The position numbers were made by a program, and so were the translations under genes. A DNA stretch of 43,406 nt from Candidatus Onthovivens merdipullorum (GTDB taxonomy: Bacteria; Bacillota_I; Bacilli_A; RFN20; CAG-826). Of this stretch, positions 6,621 through 15,737 are shown in pieces (the stretch's first letter is position 1; every line of letters begins with the position of its first letter). The stretch spans positions 1-43,406 of the forward strand of contig JADIMY010000086.1 in assembly GCA_017694345.1 (NCBI GenBank). The letters are read 5' to 3'. The notes beneath the pieces are model-generated. The model saw only the letters and a list, made by a program, of their open reading frames with translations, searched no databases and had not been told where the DNA came from.

Positions 6621-7232
6621 ATGAATTATGGTTTATATTACAATAAAGAAAAATTAGGGGATATTTTATTTTTGATTATTGAAAGTAGCACTCATCCAAA
6701 TAAAATTTTAAAAAACGATGAATTTGTTTTACTTTATAAAGAAGAAAAATTAATTGGTATTAATTTTTTAAATATTTCAAATAAAGTTAATCTTAATACG
6801 ACTGGTTTAATTTCTTTGCCTAGTAAAGAATTAATAAATACATTAAATAAAATCCTTATATCTACAAATATTGTGATTCCTCAAAAAGAAAATAGCGGTT
6901 TTATTGTTTCAAAAATTATTGATATTGAGGAACATCCTGAAAGTGACCATCTCCATATTTGTAAAGTCGATTGTGGAGAGAAAGAACCTATACAAGTAGT
7001 TTGTGGCGGATATAACGCTAGACTTAATTTAAAAACTGTTTTAGCTAAGCCATATACTTTTATGCCAGATGGATCTGAGATTATTCCTTCTAAGTTATTA
7101 GGTATAGAAAGTTATGGAATGCTTTGTAGTGAAAAAGAGCTTCATTTAGATAAACTAGAATATAAAAGAGGAATCATTGAGCTTGATGAAGCTTATAGTA
7201 TCGGGGACGATTTTTTTAAAGTAATTCAATAA
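6621..7232 (+). CDS. ytpR: YtpR-like tRNA-binding OB-fold protein
   Basis: HPESDHLH.C.VD, VVCG..N and S.GMLCS..EL motifs; conserved position after the M42 gene. Confidence 0.82.
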   Translation: MNYGLYYNKEKLGDILFLIIESSTHPNKILKNDEFVLLYKEEKLIGINFLNISNKVNLNTTGLISLPSKELINTLNKILISTNIVIPQKENSGFIVSKIIDIEEHPESDHLHICKVDCGEKEPIQVVCGGYNARLNLKTVLAKPYTFMPDGSEIIPSKLLGIESYGMLCSEKELHLDKLEYKRGIIELDEAYSIGDDFFKVIQ

Positions 7233-7254
7233 AAATTTAAAAAAATTAAATTTA

Positions 7255-7290
7255 TACCCCCCACTACCCCTCAATTTTTTACCACTTGTA
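7255..7290 (+). promoter_or_regulatory. Putative regulatory region of the Tad-like operon (TACCCC x2, T-tract, TACCACTTGTA box)
   Basis: TACCCC at 7255 and 7265; TACCACTTGTA at 7280-7290 recurs at 15111-15121. Confidence 0.45.
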
Positions 7291-7307
7291 TATGTAAGGT
7301 GGTAAAG

Positions 7308-8345
7308 ATGAGAAAATTATTAATATTATTCACTTCATTATTAAGTCTAACTTCACTTGGATTCATAAAAAAGAATGCTTTAAGTAGTAAAAATTATACT
7401 GAAAAGACTTATAAAGCTCCTAGCTATTATCAAATTAAAAATTTTGTACATTCTTTTGATTCCAAAAATGAATATCTAGTAGGAGAAGTTCCTTTAACAA
7501 TAAAATTAATTAATACTCAATATTATGTTGGAATAAATTATATTGATAAAAATAATAAAGAAATAAATTTAATTGAAGAGACTGTTAGAGATAAAGTAAG
7601 TTCTTCAAATAAAAATTATACATTAGATTTTAAATTGCCTTTAGCTAATTTAAAAGCGAATAGTAAAATTACAATTTATATTGAAGCTCCTTTATTAAGA
7701 AATGAATTAGAGATTACTTATAATATTACAAACCCAAAAGAAATAATTGATTTAAGCGAGAATAATAAAATCTATTACAATTTTGAATATTTTAATAATA
7801 CTGGTAAAAATTACTTTTATGAAGTAGTTCCTACTAGTTTTATAGAATGCGAGAAAAATATTTTTTATTTCGATTATTTTTCTTTTAAAGATTTTTATAT
7901 TGAATCTAATTATAGTAATACACCAAATCCATATTTATATATTTACGATAAATCAACTTTGTTTTTGAATGTTTTTACAACCATGAGTGGGGAAAGTACT
8001 TCAAAAAAATTTACTCCTTTAATCTTAACTAAAGATGGAAATAAATATTATATAGGTTATAAAAATAAAATTTATTTAAATAAGAATAATAATATTATGT
8101 ATTTAAATAATTTAGGAAATTATATAGAAGTAGAAGATAGAATCTATATGCCTAGTAATTATTACTATACATATAAAGATTTTAAAATTGGAATTTACTT
8201 TAAAAATTTTTCCAGTTTTAAATATCGTTTAACTTATGAAATTGAAATTCATTTTGAAGAAAATTATCGAAAAGAAGATAGTGTAATTTATAAAGAATAT
8301 GGATATGTTACACAAGATGATGTTTTAGAAGGAGTAAAAGTATGA
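7308..8345 (+). CDS. Secreted or surface hypothetical protein, first gene of the Tad-like operon
   Basis: Signal-peptide-like N-terminus MRKLLILFTSLLSLTSLG; Tyr/Asn-rich; AAGGTGG RBS; overlaps the next gene. Confidence 0.6.
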   Translation: MRKLLILFTSLLSLTSLGFIKKNALSSKNYTEKTYKAPSYYQIKNFVHSFDSKNEYLVGEVPLTIKLINTQYYVGINYIDKNNKEINLIEETVRDKVSSSNKNYTLDFKLPLANLKANSKITIYIEAPLLRNELEITYNITNPKEIIDLSENNKIYYNFEYFNNTGKNYFYEVVPTSFIECEKNIFYFDYFSFKDFYIESNYSNTPNPYLYIYDKSTLFLNVFTTMSGESTSKKFTPLILTKDGNKYYIGYKNKIYLNKNNNIMYLNNLGNYIEVEDRIYMPSNYYYTYKDFKIGIYFKNFSSFKYRLTYEIEIHFEENYRKEDSVIYKEYGYVTQDDVLEGVKV

Positions 8346-8749
8346 ATGTATCAATATTTTTCTTTGTAACAGTAATATTTTTAACTTTATTTAATGGATT
8401 TAATATTGGAATAAAAGGAAACTATATTAGTAGAACTTTTATTGATTTACCTGTAAGTCTTATTAAATCTTGTGTTTTAGTAAATGAAGAATCATATGAT
8501 GAAAATTCTTCTTATTTTGATAAAAATAAGCTTGAAGAAAATGTTAAAGAATATCTTACGATAAACTTAAAAGAACATGTAGAATCATATAATTTATCGT
8601 TTTATTACTTTTATTATGATGAAAATTTGGATTTAATTTATGATTTAGGTAATTATCCAAAAAATGTGCAAATACATTTTAATGCTGATATTTATAAAAA
8701 CATCGATATTGACAAATATTTAGTATTTACAATGGAAGATTTATTTTAA
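8342..8749 (+). CDS. Hypothetical protein with N-terminal hydrophobic helix, possible minor pilin
   Basis: MNVSIFFFVTVIFLTLF, then a soluble domain; directly before the TadA gene. Confidence 0.45.
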   Translation: MNVSIFFFVTVIFLTLFNGFNIGIKGNYISRTFIDLPVSLIKSCVLVNEESYDENSSYFDKNKLEENVKEYLTINLKEHVESYNLSFYYFYYDENLDLIYDLGNYPKNVQIHFNADIYKNIDIDKYLVFTMEDLF

Positions 8750-8762
8750 AAAGGAAGAGATT

Positions 8763-9815
8763 ATGGAAAAAGAAAGACTTATTAATTTTATCGAAAATTC
8801 GTTTATTAAGGATTTATTAAATAATCCTAACATTACAGATGTATCTTATAATGGTGAAAATATCTTTTATCAAGATAATATGGTAGGTAGAGTTAAATCT
8901 AGTTTAGAAGTTACTCAAAAAGAAGTACTTGATTTTATCCGTCAAATCGCCAATTTAAGTGATAATCAATTTAGTTACACTGATCCGATTTTAGATATGT
9001 CGATTGGTCGCTATAGAATAAATGCGACACATATGGCAATTGCTAGAAAAAATAGAGCAAACGCAATTACCTTTTCAATTAGAATAGGCTATGATGAACT
9101 AAGAATTAAAGAAGATAATACTTTTATAAAAGATAAGGCAATTGATTTATTAAAATTATTTTTGAACCGAAATAAATCTATTGTTATAGGTGGTTTAACT
9201 AGTAGTGGTAAAACAGAATTTCAAAAATATTTAATCTCTAAACTTAAACCAGCTACTAGAGTAATTATTATTGATAATGTCGATGAATTAGATAGTGATT
9301 ATATTAATAAATCAATAGATTTACAAACTTGGTTAAATCTAGAAAAGTTTAAAAATATTAATTTTGATAATTTGATTAAAAATGCCCTAAGAAATAATCC
9401 TGATTATTTAATAGTAAGTGAAGCTCGAGGAGAAGAAATGCTTTCGATATTAAATAGTGCGATGAGCGGTCACCCAACGATTACAACATTACACTCTAAA
9501 GACATCTATTCAATGTATCATAGAATGACTAGATTATGTATGTTAAAAAATCAAAATCTAAAATTTAATGAAACTTTAGAAGACATTTTTGATCAATTTA
9601 AGCTTTTAATATATCTTAAAAAAGAGATTTCAAAAGATGGAAAAGTAATAAGATATGTCGATCAAATTGCGACAAATCGATTTAAAAATATAAGGCTATT
9701 ATTTAAATATCCTAATACTTATTATCAGATTCCTAACTCCATTAAATATGATTTAAATTTAAGCGATGAAGAATTTATAAGTTTTAAAACAAGATGGGAG
9801 AGTAATAATGCATAA
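8763..9815 (+). CDS. tadA: CpaF/TadA (VirB11-family) pilus assembly ATPase
   Basis: ITD...NG, FSIR, Walker A GLTSSGKT, LR.NPD...VSEARG.E and His box SGH...TTLH. Confidence 0.85.
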   Translation: MEKERLINFIENSFIKDLLNNPNITDVSYNGENIFYQDNMVGRVKSSLEVTQKEVLDFIRQIANLSDNQFSYTDPILDMSIGRYRINATHMAIARKNRANAITFSIRIGYDELRIKEDNTFIKDKAIDLLKLFLNRNKSIVIGGLTSSGKTEFQKYLISKLKPATRVIIIDNVDELDSDYINKSIDLQTWLNLEKFKNINFDNLIKNALRNNPDYLIVSEARGEEMLSILNSAMSGHPTITTLHSKDIYSMYHRMTRLCMLKNQNLKFNETLEDIFDQFKLLIYLKKEISKDGKVIRYVDQIATNRFKNIRLLFKYPNTYYQIPNSIKYDLNLSDEEFISFKTRWESNNA

Positions 9816-10599
9816 AAGGTTATTAGTATATTTAGTAATTATTCTTTTAACATCGTTTTTATACTATTTTTCTACTAATAATCTATTACTTTCTTTAATA
9901 GTAGGTGTTATTGGAATTTTATCTTTAATACTTATAGAAAATAAAATATTTAATTATTATAAAAAAGCTAAAAAGACCCATGAATGTATTCAGTTTATGA
10001 ATAACTTTATAATTACTTTATCGATAAATAAGAGTATTTTATCAACTTATGAAATATGTTCTAAATCTTTTTCTAAAGAATTAAAACAACAAGATAAATT
10101 ATTAAGTAATCTAGATGTTGAAACAAGAATTCATTATTTATCTAAATATTTTAATAATTCTACATATGAGGTGTTTATTAAACTGTTGGATCAATATATT
10201 TATAATGGTGGTGAAATTTTAAAAATATCGCAAATCTTATTATTTGATGCACGCCAACTTGAAGAAGATATCGATAATCAATATTTACTAATTATTAAGA
10301 AAATATTTGAATTTGGTAGTTTATGGCTGATTACTTTCATTATTTTGGTAATTATAAAATTTAGTTTAAACGATTATTTTCTTAAAATTAGTAATCTTGA
10401 TTACTTTAAATATGGATTACTTGGATTCTTTGGTTTCTTTTATATAAATACTATTTTCTTTGTATATAACGCTTTTAATTTAAATTTTGTTAAAGAAGTT
10501 GTTAAAGAAAATAATAAAAAGAAAGTTACTAAAACTAAAAAAGATAAAAAGGAGAAAATCAAGAATGTTAAAATTAAAAGAAAAAATGCTTTTAACTAA
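9808..10599 (+). CDS. TadB-like membrane platform protein
   Basis: Two N-terminal TMs, soluble domain with GG motif, two C-terminal TMs; follows the ATPase. Confidence 0.6.
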   Translation: MHKRLLVYLVIILLTSFLYYFSTNNLLLSLIVGVIGILSLILIENKIFNYYKKAKKTHECIQFMNNFIITLSINKSILSTYEICSKSFSKELKQQDKLLSNLDVETRIHYLSKYFNNSTYEVFIKLLDQYIYNGGEILKISQILLFDARQLEEDIDNQYLLIIKKIFEFGSLWLITFIILVIIKFSLNDYFLKISNLDYFKYGLLGFFGFFYINTIFFVYNAFNLNFVKEVVKENNKKKVTKTKKDKKEKIKNVKIKRKNAFN

Positions 10600-11227
10600 T
10601 AAAGATCCTAAAAAAGAGATTCTTAATAATGTGCTAATAAATGTCGTTATATTATTAGTTTCAATTACAACATATTTACTAACGAAAAACTTTATGTATT
10701 TTATATATTTTGGAGCAACTTTAATTTTATTTAATTTTTATTACTTTAGTCGATATGGAAGATCTTTAGGCAAAAATAATGAAGTATTAGTCGATGATTT
10801 TATTGATACATTTACTTATTTTAGAATCTATGTTTCTAATAACCGTAATGTCTACATGTCATTAAAAGAAATTAGTAATTATTCTTCTCCTTTTATAAAA
10901 GGAAAACTTAATGAACTATTAAATGATATTGATGAAGACAAATCTTTAAAACCATTTCTTAAGTTTGCAAGTTATTTTAATAACAGAAAAGTAGAAGAAG
11001 TAATGATAGCGATATATGAAATGATTGATGAAGGAAGTAACGAAAACTATATCAATCAGTTTATTCAAACCTTCATGGCTTTTAAACTTAGGGTTAATAA
11101 AAAAAGAGAAGATAAAAGAAATTCAAATATAAATTTATCAATTACTTTAAGTATTGTTGGAGTAGGTATCTTAATGATTCTAATAATGCTTGGCATTATA
11201 TCAATTTTAGGAGAAATAGTTGTATGA
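10565..11227 (+). CDS. TadC-like membrane platform protein
   Basis: Two TMs, T2SSF-like helical domain, C-terminal TM; AGGAG RBS before ATG 10565. Confidence 0.55.
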   Translation: MLKLKEKMLLTNKDPKKEILNNVLINVVILLVSITTYLLTKNFMYFIYFGATLILFNFYYFSRYGRSLGKNNEVLVDDFIDTFTYFRIYVSNNRNVYMSLKEISNYSSPFIKGKLNELLNDIDEDKSLKPFLKFASYFNNRKVEEVMIAIYEMIDEGSNENYINQFIQTFMAFKLRVNKKREDKRNSNINLSITLSIVGVGILMILIMLGIISILGEIVV

Positions 11228-11589
11228 GTAATAAATTAGCATTAATTTTATGTATTCCATTTATTTTATTCGTGTTCTTGTTTGGAGTAGATCTAGTAAT
11301 GATTCAAACAGTCTATACAAATTTAGATTCAATAAGTGAAACGATATCTTATAAGATTTCACAAAACGGGATTGATTCAAATGGGAATATTGATAAAAGT
11401 ATAGAACAATATCTATACGAAACAACAGGAGCGATTATAGTTTCTAACAACAATAATAAGGCTAATTTCTTAGAAGGTGACATCTTCGCCTATACGCTTT
11501 CTAAAGAATATCAACCAATATTATTGTCTAGTAAAACTATAACAATAAATATTGATCGATACGCAGTTATCGGAATTAATCATTCATAA
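11224..11589 (+). CDS. TadE-like pseudopilin
   Basis: LALILCIPFILFVFLFGVD resembles the TadE N-terminal helix; operon position. Confidence 0.5.
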   Translation: MSNKLALILCIPFILFVFLFGVDLVMIQTVYTNLDSISETISYKISQNGIDSNGNIDKSIEQYLYETTGAIIVSNNNNKANFLEGDIFAYTLSKEYQPILLSSKTITINIDRYAVIGINHS

Positions 11590-11602
11590 GGAGGTATTAA
11601 AC

Positions 11603-11779
11603 ATGGGTGAAATTAAAGGTCAATTATTAGGAATTGTATTAGTATTATCAATCTTTGGTATTGTAGCAACAGCTTTAACTACAGCATTTACAAATGTTAG
11701 CGACGATGTTGTTACCAAAATAGAAAGTTCAACAGAAATTACACCAGCTGCTCAAAATAACGATTTACTTAGCTTCTGA
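11603..11779 (+). CDS. Flp-like small major pilin candidate (58 aa)
   Basis: Strong AAGGAGG RBS; MGEIKGQ, then a hydrophobic helix and an amphipathic tail; last gene of the operon. Confidence 0.6.
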   Translation: MGEIKGQLLGIVLVLSIFGIVATALTTAFTNVSDDVVTKIESSTEITPAAQNNDLLSF

Positions 11780-11799
11780 GCTAAATAATTAATAGATGT

Positions 11800-11832
11800 A
11801 AAAAAATTAGGTTTATGGGGCCTAATTTTTTT
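11800..11832 (+). terminator. Terminator of the Tad-like operon (bidirectional form)
   Basis: AAAAAAATTAGGTTT-atg-GGGCCTAATTTTTTT. Confidence 0.8.
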
Positions 11833-11843
11833 GATTTATTTAA

Positions 11844-12242
11844 TATGAAGTAGATGAAGTAGCCACTACATTAATACGAAGCGATAAATATAATGCTTTA
11901 GGTAATAAAGAAAAAGCCGAATTGCTTAAAAAGTTATTCGATTATTATTTTGATTATGCAAAAAATATGACACTTAACTTAAACGAAGGTTCTAGATTTG
12001 TTAAAGCAATGACTTTAATTAATAATTTTGATATATCTAAATATTTATTTCTTAAAGGTGAAACAAAAGAAGAAAGCGTTAAAGAAGTTAATAAAATATT
12101 TATAACAAGAAACCAAAGATTATTTGCTTTATTTTTACTTGGGTATAATTTAACTAAAGAAAACAAACAAGTTCTATATCGATATTTAATTACTTTAGGA
12201 GTGAATAGGAATACTGTTAAAGAATGGGTTGGTATTGAATAA
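11844..12242 (+). pseudogene. 5'-truncated gene fragment, possibly the C-terminus of a large phage virion protein
   Basis: Frame is open from the stop at 11841 with no RBS-supported start; contains SDKYNALGNKEKAELLKKLFDYYFDYAK; lies next to a tRNA 3' end. Confidence 0.4.
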
Positions 12243-12348
12243 GCACAAAAAATAGTAGAAGTAACTAGCGTGTTACTAGTTTTTCTAATAATTGTTAAGA
12301 CATTTTTAAAAAGTATAAGGTTATTTTTATTTTTAAAATTTTGAAAAA

Positions 12349-12380
12349 GGCTTCCAAAAAGGCTTCCATAGGGGCTTCCA
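12349..12380. repeat. Three direct repeats GGCTTCCA at 12-bp spacing (integrase arm-site-like)
   Basis: Copies at 12349, 12361 and 12373, about 40 bp from the tRNA-Arg 3' end. Confidence 0.8.
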
Positions 12381-12384
12381 AAAA

Positions 12385-12409
12385 TAAAAAAGTTCGATTT
12401 AATCGAACT
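12385..12409 (-). terminator. Terminator after the tRNA cluster
   Basis: AGTTCGATT-T-AATCGAACT inverted repeat with a T-run on the minus strand. Confidence 0.65.
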
Positions 12410-12420
12410 AATTTGCAATT

Positions 12421-12497
12421 TGGCGCGCCTGACAGGAGTCGAACCCGTAACCTCTTGGTTCGTAGCCAAGCACTCTATCCAGTTGAGCTACAGGCGC
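12421..12497 (-). tRNA. tRNA-Arg (ACG)
   Basis: Cloverleaf; anticodon arm CTTGG-CTACGAA-CCAAG; GTTCGA T-loop; encoded CCA. Confidence 0.96.
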
Positions 12498-12504
12498 TTT
12501 AAAT

Positions 12505-12529
12505 AAAAAAAGATACTTTAGCGTATCTT
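12505..12529 (-). terminator. Terminator-like hairpin between tRNA-Pro and tRNA-Arg
   Basis: AAGATAC/GTATCTT stem with a T7 run on the minus strand. Confidence 0.5.
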
Positions 12530-12542
12530 GTATATTTAAGTT

Positions 12543-12619
12543 TGGTCGGGGCGACTGGATTTGAACCAGCGGCCTTCAGTTCCCAAAACTGACGCGATAC
12601 CAAGCTACGCTACGCCCCG
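12543..12619 (-). tRNA. tRNA-Pro (TGG)
   Basis: CGGGGCG acceptor; TCAGT-TTTGGGA-ACTGA anticodon arm; CCA. Confidence 0.96.
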
Positions 12620-12622
12620 AAA

Positions 12623-12699
12623 TGGTGACCTATACGGGATTCGAACCCATGAATGCATGCGTGAAAGGCATGTGAGTTAAGCCACTTCTCCAATAGGCC
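12623..12699 (-). tRNA. tRNA-Glu (TTC)
   Basis: CATGC-CTTTCAC-GCATG anticodon arm; CCA. Confidence 0.96.
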
Positions 12700-12701
12700 A
12701 A

Positions 12702-12776
12702 TGGCGCCAACTATAGGGCTCGAACCTACAACCGATCGGTTAACAGCCGATTGCTCTACCATTGAGCTAAGTTGGC
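12702..12776 (-). tRNA. tRNA-Asn (GTT)
   Basis: ATCGG-CTGTTAA-CCGAT anticodon arm; CCA. Confidence 0.96.
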
Positions 12777-12797
12777 GTTGCGCTTGAGCGCTTAATT

Positions 12798-12826
12798 AAT
12801 ATACCAAAACCATGATAATTAATCAA
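12798..12826 (-). promoter_or_regulatory. Sigma-A promoter of the tRNA cluster
   Basis: TTGATT-17 bp-TATATT with extended TG. Confidence 0.65.
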
Positions 12827-12838
12827 GATTTTTTTAAA

Positions 12839-13063
12839 TTATTTTAGCTTAGATTTTACAAGTCTTAATAAATCACCTAAATTTTTTAATTCTTGGGTTT
12901 CTTGAGGTTCAAATTTAATACCATAGGAATCTTCTAAGTCAAGAATAACTTCGACTACATCTAAAGAATCTAAACCTAGACTTGCTAAAGTAGCATTTTC
13001 ATCAATTTCAGCGATGTTTAATTTTTCTTTAATTTTTTCTTCTATTTCTTCATATTTAACCAT
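12839..13063 (-). CDS. acpP: Acyl carrier protein
   Basis: LGLDSLD phosphopantetheine motif; GAGG RBS before ATG 13063. Confidence 0.9.
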   Translation of the reverse strand: MVKYEEIEEKIKEKLNIAEIDENATLASLGLDSLDVVEVILDLEDSYGIKFEPQETQELKNLGDLLRLVKSKLK

Positions 13064-13224
13064 AAATTTACCTCGTTTTTGATATTTTAACATAAATTAA
13101 TTTTATAAAAAATATAATATTGCTTAATATTGATTGTGACAGTTAACAAAATATTTTTTGTGGAAATTATTTTTTACTATGATTTAGTCTTAATTTCCTT
13201 TACAATTAGTAAACAGGTGAACAT

Positions 13225-14847
13225 ATGGATAAATCAAAAATGAAGTTTATATTTGTGACTGGTGGAGTAGTTTCTAGTTTAGGAAAAGGAATTAGTGCTG
13301 CGTGTATTGGAAGATTATTGAAAAGAAGAGGTCTTCATATATTTTCTATTAAATTAGATCCATATTTAAATATTGATCCAGGAACAATGTCACCTTATCA
13401 ACATGGAGAAGTTTTTGTTACAAAAGATGGAGCAGAAACTGATTTAGATTTAGGCCATTATGAAAGAATTATTAACACTAGTTTGACTAAAGAAAGTAGT
13501 GTAACTAGCGGTAAAGTTTATCAAACCGTATTAGATAAAGAAAGAAAAGGGGAATATTTAGGAGCCACTATTCAAATTATTCCTCATATTACTAATGAAA
13601 TTAAAAAAAGATTATATGACGGATTTAACGCTAAAGGTGACACCGATGTTTGCATTGTTGAAATAGGCGGAACAGTAGGAGACATTGAATCTTTACCTTT
13701 TTTTGAAGCTATTAGGCAAATGCGTAGAGAACTTGGTTATGAAAATACTTTTTTTATGCATAATACTCTAGTCCCTTATCTAGAAACTAGTGGTGAAATA
13801 AAAACAAAACCAACTCAACATAGTGTTAAAGAACTAACTAGCTTAGGAATTCAACCTGATGCTATTTTACTTAGAAGCAAAAATTTAGTCGATAAAGCTT
13901 CTAGAAAGAAAGTCGCTTTATTTTGCAATGTCGATGATGAAGCAGTGATTAGCGTTAAAGATGTCGATATAATATACGAAGTTGCTTTAAATTTACAAAA
14001 ACAACATCTTGATGATTTAATTGTTAAACATATGAATCTAAAGTGTGAAGACACAGCTTATATGGACGATTATGTTAAACTTATTAGAAAAATTAAAAAT
14101 ATAAAAAAATCTATTAATATCGCTTTAGTTGGTAAATATGTTAAACTTCATGATGCTTATTTAAGTGTTCTTGAATCTTTAAAATATGCCGGATATGTTT
14201 ACGATCTTAATATCGATATTACATGGGTTGATAGTGAAGTTTTAGAGAGCGAAGATGCTAACGAAATTTTTAAGAATGTTGACGGAATCATTGTTCCAGG
14301 AGGATTCGGTAATCGAGGGATCGAAGGCAAAATTAAAGCAATTAAATACGCTAGAGAACACAATATTCCTTTTTTAGGTTTATGTTTAGGTATGCAATTA
14401 TCTTTAATTGAAATTGCTAGAGATGTAATTGGATATAAAGATGCTAATTCAACTGAATTTAATCCTGAAACAACTCACAAGATAATTGATTATTTGCCTA
14501 ATCAATATAAAGGAATCAAACTAGGCGGAACGATGAGACTTGGAGAATACGATTGTAAAATAATAAAGAACACCTTAGCTTATGCTTTATATAAAAAAGA
14601 AGATATTAGAGAAAGACATAGACATCGTTATGAATTTAATAGTGAGTATAAAAAAGATTTTGAAGATGTTGGAGTTGTTTTCAGTGGTTTTAATCCACAA
14701 ACTAAGTTATGTGAAATTATTGAGTATCCTAAAAATTCCTTTTTTATCGCTTGTCAATTTCACCCTGAATTTCAATCTCGACCTTTAAATCCTCATCCAT
14801 TATTTGTAGGTTTTATTGACGCAGCAAAGAAAGTAAAGTTAAATTAA
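13225..14847 (+). CDS. pyrG: CTP synthase
   Basis: GGVVSSLGKG, DPGTMSPYQHGE, KTKPTQHS, CLGMQ, RHRHRYE and QFHPE motifs. Confidence 0.98.
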   Translation: MDKSKMKFIFVTGGVVSSLGKGISAACIGRLLKRRGLHIFSIKLDPYLNIDPGTMSPYQHGEVFVTKDGAETDLDLGHYERIINTSLTKESSVTSGKVYQTVLDKERKGEYLGATIQIIPHITNEIKKRLYDGFNAKGDTDVCIVEIGGTVGDIESLPFFEAIRQMRRELGYENTFFMHNTLVPYLETSGEIKTKPTQHSVKELTSLGIQPDAILLRSKNLVDKASRKKVALFCNVDDEAVISVKDVDIIYEVALNLQKQHLDDLIVKHMNLKCEDTAYMDDYVKLIRKIKNIKKSINIALVGKYVKLHDAYLSVLESLKYAGYVYDLNIDITWVDSEVLESEDANEIFKNVDGIIVPGGFGNRGIEGKIKAIKYAREHNIPFLGLCLGMQLSLIEIARDVIGYKDANSTEFNPETTHKIIDYLPNQYKGIKLGGTMRLGEYDCKIIKNTLAYALYKKEDIRERHRHRYEFNSEYKKDFEDVGVVFSGFNPQTKLCEIIEYPKNSFFIACQFHPEFQSRPLNPHPLFVGFIDAAKKVKLN

Positions 14848-14853
14848 ATATAT

Positions 14854-14929
14854 GGGATAATAGCTCAGTTGGGAGAGCATATCGTTCGCAACGATAAGGT
14901 CGCGAGTTCGAGTCTCGTTTATTCCACCA
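14854..14929 (+). tRNA. tRNA-Ala (CGC)
   Basis: G3:U70 pair in the acceptor stem GGGATAA/TTATTCC; TATCG-TTCGCAA-CGATA anticodon arm; CCA. Confidence 0.93.
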
Positions 14930-14943
14930 TTAATGTAGATTAT

Positions 14944-14975
14944 GCCTGATTCCTTAATGGAGTTCAGGCTTTTTC
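14944..14975 (+). terminator. Terminator after pyrG-tRNA-Ala
   Basis: GCCTGATTCC...GGAGTTCAGGC followed by TTTTT. Confidence 0.75.
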
Positions 14976-15110
14976 TTTATTTACTAATAATAAACTTAAA
15001 AATATTGCCTCATTTGTCATTCAAAAAACCTCTAAAACTCAAATATTGTGACATTGTCAAAAAATTTAATAATAAAAATAAATATTTTTTGTCAATAAGT
15101 CTATTTTTGA

Positions 15111-15121
15111 TACCACTTGTA
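15111..15121 (+). promoter_or_regulatory. Second TACCACTTGTA box
   Basis: Identical to 7280-7290, 27 nt before the ATG and preceded by TCTATTTTT. Confidence 0.45.
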
Positions 15122-15137
15122 AGTAGGAGGTGAGAAA

Positions 15138-15737
15138 ATGTATTTTGATATCATTGTAAGTTTATTGGTATTAGTAATTTTTATTTTTACAGTTATAGTT
15201 TATTTAAACGGACTTAAAGTTGATAATAAAATTACTTCATTAGTGATTAAGGAATTTGATAATCGTGAATTTTATGAGAACTTCGATCTTGATGAAGATA
15301 TTAAAGTTTTATTTGAAAATAAAGATTATCAATTTTTAGTAAAGGAGCTTTATAAAAATAAAAGAATTACTTTTTCGTATGATGAATTAATTAAAAAAGT
15401 TAAAAAAACTAAGTTTAAAAATATTACAGTATGTGAAAAAGAATTTAATGATTTAATAGAAAGTTTGCTAAATAAAAAAGATTATTTACCGTTAAATACT
15501 TTTTGTGAAAAGATAAATTATGAACTGTTTAAATTAGAAAACTTTTCTTTTTATGCTTTGACTAATCCTAGTTTAAATGACTATTTATATCAAACTTATA
15601 AGAAAGAATTTATTAATCGAGTTTATAATCTTTCCTTTTTTATTAGTTCGATTGATGAAGATGAATTTAAATATAGTAATATTAGATTGCTTTATGAAAA
15701 ACGGATAAAAAGAAGAATATCTAAATCGTTCTTTTAA
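15138..15737 (+). CDS. Hypothetical protein with an N-terminal membrane anchor
   Basis: AGGAGGTG RBS; IIVSLLVLVIFIFTVIVYL TM segment. Confidence 0.65.
   Translation: MYFDIIVSLLVLVIFIFTVIVYLNGLKVDNKITSLVIKEFDNREFYENFDLDEDIKVLFENKDYQFLVKELYKNKRITFSYDELIKKVKKTKFKNITVCEKEFNDLIESLLNKKDYLPLNTFCEKINYELFKLENFSFYALTNPSLNDYLYQTYKKEFINRVYNLSFFISSIDEDEFKYSNIRLLYEKRIKRRISKSFF

Follow-up and report, generated by a model that had tools for sequence, protein, structure and literature searches.

A species-specific two-part box precedes DNA-uptake genes in Candidatus Onthovivens merdipullorum and is probably a promoter

Genes of DNA uptake and recombination in Candidatus Onthovivens merdipullorum, which belongs to an uncultured, genome-reduced lineage of chicken-gut Bacilli, are preceded by an oriented, bipartite element of about 45 nt that we call the com-box. 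Our analysis suggests that the com-box is probably the promoter of a competence regulon and is read by an alternative factor of the sigma-70 family. One full copy lies upstream of a pilus-like operon in the window, i.e. the whole stretch of 43,406 nt that was analysed (contig JADIMY010000086.1 of assembly GCA_017694345.1, forward strand), and a partial match lies upstream of a gene for an orphan protein of 199 aa. The assembly, called G000 here, comprises 1.46 Mb in 137 contigs with 27% GC and is 86% complete; the window is its contig C65. A first-pass annotation of the window had noticed an 11-mer common to the two genes and had read it, with the streptococcal ComX box in mind, as a promoter of a possibly competence-like regulon.

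Results

A bipartite element behind a shared 11-mer

Exact matching placed the 11-mer TACCACTTGTA on the + strand at 7280-7290 (site 1) and 15111-15121 (site 2), where the first-pass annotation had reported it, and a search allowing one mismatch agreed that the window holds no other copy. The distance from the start of the 11-mer to the start codon was measured as 28 nt at site 1 (ATG 7308) and 27 nt at site 2 (ATG 15138), again as reported, with a Shine-Dalgarno (SD) sequence just 3' of each copy (AAGGTGG at 7296-7302 and AGGAGGTG at 15125-15132). The T-tract described ahead of both copies directly adjoins the 11-mer at site 1 (TCAATTTTT, 7271-7279), whereas at site 2 (TCTATTTTT, 15100-15108) the two are parted by GA, so that the T-tracts of the two sites are 2 nt out of register. 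Within this AT-rich window the pair is not beyond chance, as 11 of 100 dinucleotide shuffles gave at least two matches with one mismatch at most. Genome-wide there are six exact copies against about 0.8 expected from base composition (1,459,482 bases, 27% GC). Four of the six lie in a much longer conserved element, and the other two are site 2 and an antisense site inside a gene on contig C110.

This longer element is the com-box, AAATTTATACCCCCCACTA-N14(13)-ACCACTTGTAT, of which the site 1 11-mer is the 3' end; the spacer is 14 nt long (13 nt in three copies) and usually has a T-tract at its end. At site 1 the full com-box occupies 7246..7291 on the + strand (nhmmer E 1.1e-10), beginning 14 nt past the stop codon of the co-directional upstream gene 6621-7232. 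It consists of an AT-rich upstream part (7246-7256), a C-run with the -35-like box CCCCCCACTA (7257-7266), a 14-nt spacer containing the T-tract (7267-7280) and the -10-like box ACCACTTGTAT (7281-7291), to which the 11-mer at 7280-7290 corresponds. The signal is accordingly not a T-tract followed by an 8-mer of ComX type, as first proposed, but a two-part one, with a C-rich -35-like box that had been missed.

The site 1 com-box is one of 12 strong copies in the genome. The pattern CCCCCAC-N17-19-ACTTGTAT occurs 12 times and its reversed control not once, and a two-box pattern search returned the 12 family members and one false match. An nhmmer profile built from these copies recovered them at E 3.6e-11 to 3.9e-5, with the next match only at E 1.4. 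All 12 are intergenic, point toward the downstream open reading frame (ORF) and have ACCACTTGTAT or ACTACTTGTAT as their -10-like box. CAC and CTTGTAT are spaced 20 nt apart in nine copies and 19 nt apart in three (CCCACTA-N14 or N13-ACCAC), i.e. two boxes at fixed spacing, as in promoters of extracytoplasmic function (ECF, group 4) sigma factors. Eight copies closely follow a co-directional ORF, with box starts at -4 to +14 nt relative to its stop codon. Box end and start codon are 16-19 nt apart with an SD between them in eight of the 12; in the others, ahead of rpsF-ssb and on contigs C77, C102 and C128, the distance is 45, 59, 141 or 196 nt and no SD is adjacent. A mobile or repetitive extragenic palindromic (REP)-like repeat was ruled out, since the copies are oriented, intergenic, at fixed distances to gene starts and without terminal repeats; their position before orthologous genes in other species contradicts it too. 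Scans for ordinary sigma-70 promoters around both window sites gave no excess over shuffles.

Genes behind the com-box

The genes downstream of the boxes were identified by a Pfam scan combined with ORF maps. Strong copies stand upstream of the pilus-like operon of the window (7308..12242, +), of the genes for ComEA (HHH_3, SLBB) and ComEC (Competence) on contig C113, of those for RecA and RNase Y on C25, of a 61-aa membrane ORF and RadC on C137 and of rpsF-ssb-rpsR, encoding S6, SSB and S18, on C29. Further strong copies precede a secreted nuclease operon (two lipoproteins and Endonuclease_1, C57), an ABC/FtsX transporter (C4), an AAA-ATPase with PDDEXK_9 (C128), an SDH-type protease (C77), a 172-aa protein without family match (C102) and a 7-codon mini-ORF followed by a Big_3 lipoprotein (C93); one stands at a contig end (C106). 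Three weaker copies in which the C-run is missing or displaced were found ahead of a helicase gene, a C39 peptidase gene (no C-run) and a PDDEXK fragment. The helicase, of 385 aa with CxxC motifs and likewise behind a box without C-run, we read as ComFA-like from its own sequence rather than from a family scan. The first-pass annotation had proposed looking for the box ahead of comEA, comEC, comF, dprA, ssb and radC, and it is indeed present before comEA-comEC, radC, ssb and the ComFA-like gene, as well as before recA and the pilus operon. The dprA gene of G000 lies at a contig end with its upstream region outside the assembly; in the sister species G018 dprA does have a box.

In the pilus-like operon the sole recognisable product is a T2SSE-family ATPase (8763-9815, +; PF00437 1.3e-19, above cut-off), whose best partial NCBIfam matches, to VirB11, TadA and ComGA, each fall under their cut-off. 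It is preceded by the genes for a secreted or lipoprotein-like protein of 345 aa and a product of 135 aa, and followed on the + strand by two membrane proteins (9808-10599 and 10487-11227), small hydrophobic ORFs (11224-11589 and 11552-11779) and a last ORF (11922-12242). A faint T2SSF match was also seen in the operon (E 0.085).

Two loci deserve a separate remark. On C93 (25013-25130) a full com-box with the SD GGGGGG is followed by the 7-codon ORF (MMILDGT, stop), the Big_3 lipoprotein lying 83 nt past the box; the mini-ORF could be a decayed gene start or a leader peptide frame. On C1 (29195-29700) a degenerate com-box, TATACCTCATACTACC...ACCATTTGTAC, stands ahead of an 11-codon ORF with a PDDEXK_9-like fragment downstream, which looks like a pseudogene copy of the AAA-ATPase/PDDEXK gene of C128, whose box is intact.

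Each species has its own version of the box

The exact com-box pattern of G000 has no match in 40 relatives. This is due to a species-by-species drift of the boxes rather than to a lack of conservation. In most of 30 genomes of the same genus (RecA 61-77% identical) a box resembling CTTGTAT lies 3-6 nt ahead of the recA SD, and in the four closest relatives a C-run lies about 20 nt upstream of it. These four hold 7-9 distinct CCCCC-N19-23-CTTGTW sites each, compared with 0-2 for the reversed control, in species-specific flanks (ACGACTTGTA, CCTACTTGTA, TACTACTTGTA and GCG[AT]CTTGTA), and the genes behind them are recA, comEA, dprA, rpsF, an ABC transporter, a C39 peptidase and a 60-aa ORF, joined by the pilus operon in the three that possess it. 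Homologues of the first gene of the pilus operon were found in three of the 30 genomes, in each case with a box upstream.

Five more distant species have 3-8 copies each of TCTTGTAT-N1-8-GGAG (controls 0-2), and every one of them has its own uniform upstream box, e.g. AGTGAATAAT in all eight G041 copies. As judged from N-terminal sequences, these boxes precede recA, comEA-like and C39-like genes and the 60-aa ORF. CTTGTAT followed by SD and ATG is enriched over control in about half of the 31 genus genomes. The promoters of ECF sigmas have an AAC-type -35 and a CGT-type -10 consensus, and CGTC, CGAC or CGTTC occurs in the -10 region of G011, G024, G045, G007 and G041; none of these is present in G000. 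RecA of G000 is 76% identical to that of the nearest titled record, a metagenome-assembled genome of an uncultured Bacilli bacterium. Since the site 1 element is multi-copy and positionally fixed and has species-specific versions ahead of orthologous genes, both observations that the first-pass annotation had named as arguing against its idea, no positional enrichment genome-wide and no conservation upstream of orthologues, failed to appear for this element.

One clade (G012, G016, G017 and G005) differs: its recA is preceded by TTCCCCCCCTATTAATAGTG or TTCCCTAC.TATAA.TAGTG in the place of CTTGTAT, and the sigma factor of contig C16 described below has no clear orthologue there. Together these two features may point to a replaced pair of regulator and box.

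Predicted hairpins over the SD

The SDs behind the G000 boxes, together with their flanks, can base-pair with either the C-run or the T-tract-ACC part of the box. At site 1 a predicted RNA hairpin (7276..7308, +) pairs a 5' arm at 7276-7287 (T-tract and ACCACTT) with a 3' arm at 7297-7308 (SD AGGTGG and flank), with a minimum free energy (MFE) of -12.9 kcal/mol (z -2.64; an equally good fold in 4 of 200 shuffles). In transcripts begun upstream of the box this structure is predicted to bury the SD. Eight com-box leaders were compared with 604 background gene starts and had the lower mean MFE, -14.4 vs -7.2 kcal/mol (Mann-Whitney p 1.7e-5), and four of the eight, against 2.5% of the background, had an MFE of -12 or lower with the SD fully paired. 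Each box also pairs better with its own SD than in swapped combinations (-12.9 vs -10.7, permutation p 0.00015). Of 34 sites in nine relatives, 16 folded better than at least 95% of the versions with a shuffled upstream part, with stems of up to 12 bp, e.g. AAAATACCTCCT and AGGAGGTATTTT in G007. Eight of the 12 boxes directly adjoin a gene read in the same direction; read-through RNA must therefore be frequent, and the arrangement suggests that the boxes insulate their genes from read-through.

A candidate sigma factor

Searches of G000 with PF04542, PF08281, PF04545 and a custom hidden Markov model (HMM) found two sigma factors, RpoD and a single alternative one of ECF type. When all the small sigmas found in the genus were combined into an HMM, it matched only this second gene in G000, and G013 (94% complete) has the same two-sigma repertoire. 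The ECF-type sigma consists of 176 aa with regions 2 and 4 only (C16:5669-6199; TIGR02937 65.3 bits, cut-off 42.9). Its gene is overlapped by 14 nt by that of a 380-aa membrane protein without family match (C16:6186-7328), which we infer to be anti-sigma-like from its position and from one membrane-spanning stretch read in its sequence. Upstream of the sigma gene the motif C[CA]AA[TC]A[ATC]-N14-T[CT]GT[ACT], mostly CCAATAA-N14-TCGTA, is found at 17 of 18 orthologous loci. The spacing in this motif is always 14, equal to that of CCCACTA-N14-ACCAC in the com-box, and a second copy of CCAATAA-N14-TCGTA lies on C16 at 7335, before two lipoprotein genes (7398-8291 and 8392-9729). The shared architecture with differing sequence would suit a single sigma that uses two classes of promoter as well as a pair of related readers.

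The first-pass annotation had expected a sigma of SigH or ComX type. An alternative sigma is present, although of ECF type: no SigH-type regulator was found, PF06338 (ComK) matched nothing in the 86%-complete genome at E <= 1, and no ComX-like factor was among the matches to the models above, a ComX-specific model not having been searched. Weak region-4 matches were set aside as regulators, their ORF sequences reading as YlxM-like, XRE, LacI or HNH proteins, and the second sigma type seen in G024 was dropped as sporadic in the genus, with clear orthologues in three of 30 genomes. The 172-aa protein of C102 had been considered as a hidden sigma and was discarded, having no family match.

Two side observations concern other regulators. 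XRE-type helix-turn-helix proteins with hydrophobic C-terminal membrane stretches can be read from the sequence at C111:3093-3668 and C125:7995-8612 in minus-strand orientation (192-aa and 206-aa frames); both are candidates for regulators anchored in the membrane, and no link between them and the com-box is known. Two full-length RpoD-like genes lie side by side in G007 (C10:25482-27047, about 450 aa each) and G017 (C6:35630-37736, 424 and 384 aa); in some species of the genus the housekeeping sigma is tandemly duplicated.

Site 2 and the 199-aa orphan

Site 2 is a partial or hybrid box (15092..15121, +) made up of TCAATAA (15092-15098), a 13-nt spacer and ACCACTTGTAA (15112-15122), with no C-run. 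The orphan gene behind it (15138..15737, +; strong SD AGGAGGTG 5 nt upstream of the ATG) encodes 199 aa with an N-terminal transmembrane helix. Scans against Pfam- and NCBIfam-type families gave no match, no homologue was found in the 30 same-genus genomes or in JGI metagenome contigs, and among near lengths of a set of 5.8 billion proteins, longer and shorter classes not being searched, only the orphan's own 99% cluster came up. Without homologues there is no orthologous upstream region to compare. The cluster is listed at 211 aa, i.e. 12 residues longer, and in the window the frame is closed by a stop upstream of the ORF; the difference may reflect a strain variant or another start call. Further upstream, right after the CTP synthase gene (13225-14847), an inverted repeat GCCTGA...TCAGGC followed by TTTTT at 14944-14975 looks like an intrinsic terminator with a 14-nt loop; the program used to scan this region, which admits loops of up to 8 nt, did not report it.

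Discussion

The com-box as a promoter

We read the com-box as a sigma-70-family promoter because of the fixed distance between its two boxes, the AT-rich upstream part, the CGTC -10s of several relatives and the four copies distant from any SD, and also because the boxes drift together within a species at constant spacing. An alternative sigma acting at the com-box would switch on DNA-uptake and recombination genes together, the proposed regulon comprising the pilus operon, comEA-comEC, comFA, recA, radC, ssb, the secreted nuclease, the ABC transporter and a few genes of unknown function. The best candidate reader is the 176-aa ECF-type sigma, the only alternative sigma in the assembly, with its putative anti-sigma neighbour of 380 aa, and we give it roughly an even chance of being the factor that reads the com-box. 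Read-through transcripts from a co-directional upstream gene would carry the box, and in such RNA the C-rich or ACC part could pair with the G-rich SD and block translation, while transcripts begun at the box would lack the 5' arm and be translated. The presence of this arm would thus silence read-through RNA and its absence leave box-started RNA open. Of the earlier proposal, a promoter for an alternative sigma or activator of a possibly competence-like regulon, the outline has held for site 1, with the box before competence genes and an ECF sigma in the genome; the ComX type has not, nor was a ComX, SigH or ComK regulator found.

Several observations weigh against this reading or parts of it. 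What has been observed is the motif, its copy number, orientation and spacing, the genes behind it, its conservation with drift and the hairpin statistics, whereas promoter status, transcription start, reader and insulating role are inferred; among the sequencing runs found there are 14 of DNA, mostly chicken-gut metagenomes, and none of RNA. As the -10-like box ends 3-5 nt before the SD, the leader would be very short. No com-box was found upstream of the sigma gene, which speaks against autoregulation by the same promoter, and the com-box (CCCACTA...ACCACTTGTAT) and the promoter of the sigma gene itself (CCAATAA...TCGTAATTTAT) are unlike in sequence, the com-boxes of G000 and G013 having lost the CG that the latter keeps. 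Clear orthologues of the C16 sigma (44-60% identity) occur in just 17 of the 30 genus genomes. G021 (94% complete) has three boxes and only RpoD by PF04542, and G007 and G020 have boxes together with only a small sigma of 27-28% identity. With the genome 86% complete, the true factor could be missing from the assembly. As for the insulating role, no significant hairpin was predicted at 18 of the 34 sites in relatives, nor at recA in G045 and G020, and C-runs and G-rich SDs pair to some extent for compositional reasons.

The significant hairpins could instead mean that the com-box is not a promoter at all but a riboregulator in the transcribed 5' leader, closing the SD until a competence-specific RNA-binding protein or small RNA opens it, much as Com of phage Mu does on the mom mRNA. 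The genes would then be co-transcribed with the upstream gene or start from an AT-rich -10 just upstream, and the trans factor would recognise the loop CUUGUAU together with the C-rich arm. It would suit this explanation that eight of the 12 boxes abut a co-directional gene and leave no room for a separate promoter, that the box-to-SD distance is fixed and that the upstream box of the distant species resembles a sigma-A -10 (TATAAT, GATAAT or AATAAT about 21 nt before TCTTGTAT). It does not account for the four boxes (rpsF-ssb, C77, C102 and C128) far from their start codon with no SD beside them, or for the strict 19-20 nt spacing of the two boxes and the CGTC, which are features of DNA recognition by a sigma; moreover, about half of the relatives' sites have no significant hairpin, and the paired 5' arm varies by locus (C-run, or T-tract with ACC), so no single RNA structure is conserved. 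We consider a riboregulator improbable, and hold the same low opinion of a dedicated activator, not a sigma, that binds the two boxes and recruits RNA polymerase with RpoD. Such an activator might be a membrane-anchored XRE-type regulator, of which the genome has candidates, or a protein of unknown family, with TATAnn after CTTG serving as a weak -10. Every copy does read TAT(A/G)nn after CTTG, several of them TATAAT or TATAGT, and CCACT recurs in both boxes 21 nt apart, which amounts to two helical turns and resembles the direct-repeat binding sites of ComE and AgrA; the boxes of G021, where no alternative sigma was detected, would also be explained. With TATAnn as the -10, however, transcription would start inside or after the SD that is conserved 3-5 nt downstream, the last T of this hexamer is not conserved, relatives keep only CTTGTAT and not the second 'repeat', and ComK, one conceivable activator, was not found.

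For site 2, that its likeness to site 1 is a coincidence, the orphan lying outside this class and being served by an ordinary promoter, is a serious contender that we rate slightly short of even. Under the full profile site 2 scores E 46 at rank 31, among noise, and it lacks the C-run of all 12 strong members; the final T of CTTGTAT, invariant in these 12, is replaced by A (CTTGTAA). About 0.8 chance 11-mers are expected genome-wide where two non-family copies are seen, no significant hairpin is predicted at the site (z -0.33) and the orphan is without orthologues. A sigma-70-like candidate, TTGTGA-16-AATAAT (15046..15073, +; nine of 12 matches), could serve the orphan instead from 40 nt upstream, although seven such sites occur in the region compared with a shuffle mean of 7.1. 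Other features speak against chance. Site 2 has the geometry of true members, in that it points toward its gene and its CTTGTAA stops 16 nt short of the ATG and is followed by an SD, and it keeps the species-specific ACCACTTGTA / ACCA flank. The two exact 11-mers outside the family, at site 2 and on C110, share a CAATAA placed exactly 17 nt ahead of CTTGTA, in core sequence and in register the -35 of the promoter of the sigma gene itself; at that single offset CAATAA is found at two of 71 CACTTGTA sites, with about 0.06 expected (8.5e-4 per position). The ComFA-like and C39 genes lack the C-run as well, and CTTGTAA is found in boxes of a sister species. Site 2 is about equally well taken as a weak promoter of the same class without C-run or as a chance match. 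Membership of the orphan in the regulon, as the first-pass annotation had it, is not supported in that form.

A more far-reaching picture, which we offer tentatively and think rather unlikely to hold in full, would join these threads to the promoter reading: competence in wall-less-looking gut Bacilli switched on by a membrane-sensed pair of ECF sigma and anti-sigma, with a fast-drifting, species-own box that doubles as an anti-SD arm and with the orphan behind site 2 included. With a U-run after it the promoter might also act as a weak terminator. Competence genes directly behind housekeeping genes would, in this picture, be translated only from transcripts started inside the box.

For a lineage in which no regulator or promoter is known so far, the com-box provides a testable map of a regulon for natural transformation, and DNA uptake in this lineage becomes a concrete hypothesis. 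The map names genes that would be switched together, including unknowns, the secreted nuclease, the ABC transporter and the C39 peptidase, points to a candidate master regulator and shows how fast the promoters of a whole regulon can diverge from one sister species to the next. If the anti-SD arm within the promoter is real, it would shield closely spaced genes from read-through in a compact manner that could be reused in design. A limited search of literature listings and abstracts found no competence regulon or promoter described in this lineage.

Comparison with known systems

In streptococci the ComX (sigma-X) regulon places comEA/EC, comF, dprA, ssb, recA, radC and the pilus operon under a dedicated alternative sigma, which recognises the cin-box, an 8-bp consensus TACGAATA at about -10. 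Like the com-box, the cin-box is a short box near the gene start that marks late competence genes, with a T-rich stretch upstream, and the genes behind the com-box are of this late-competence kind. In sequence, TACGAATA is unrelated to ACCACTTGTAT, and the com-box has no 8-bp cin-box; it has instead a strong, strictly spaced C-rich -35-like box, and no ComX-like sigma was found with the sigma-family models used. The pilus ATPase of the window is also closer to the VirB11 and TadA models than to ComGA.

Operons of an ECF sigma and its anti-sigma are familiar from SigW, SigX and SigM of B. subtilis. The com-box resembles ECF promoters in its two short boxes at fixed spacing and, in several species, in a CGTC -10; the candidate sigma gene, overlapping a membrane-protein gene and having a conserved, autoregulatory-looking promoter, resembles the operons. 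It differs in that the -35 of the com-box is CCCCCCACTA and not of AAC type, and in that the CG of the -10 is lost in G000. We know of no ECF sigma that controls competence. For the hairpins, the nearest model is the fold-back inhibition of the IS10 transposase, where read-through RNA is silent as it contains a segment complementary to the ribosome-binding site, and RNA from the transposase's own promoter lacks that segment. Compared with IS10, the com-box arrangement would extend over a cellular regulon of about a dozen loci, with the anti-SD inside the promoter or its spacer.

The sigma-20 (MG428) regulon of Mycoplasma genitalium is the closest documented parallel: its sigma is ECF-like, of group 4, and the organism is wall-less with a small genome low in GC (PMC4446450). 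Its promoter is TTGTCA-N18/19-ATTWAT, with TTGGCR-N18/19-ATTYAT as the M. pneumoniae version, and ends 15-17 nt before the ATG of recA, MG_390 (an ABC transporter), MG_220, MG_414 and MG_525; its targets or candidates include recA and a ComEC/Rec2-like gene (PMC4446450). The com-box consensus differs, its hexamers at N18/19 being CCACTA and TTGTAT rather than TTGTCA-N18/19-ATTWAT, and of the C16 sigma's own promoter, CAATAA-N19-ATTTAT, the -10 fits ATTWAT and the -35 does not. The com-box regulon also differs in its strong SDs and in covering DNA uptake in full, with comEA-comEC, the ComFA-like gene, the pilus operon and, in G018, dprA. Taken together, boxes of competence sigma regulons are already known from ComX, SigH and sigma-20; new here are the lineage, the box and its fast drift between species, and possibly the control by an ECF sigma and anti-sigma and the anti-SD arm within the promoter.

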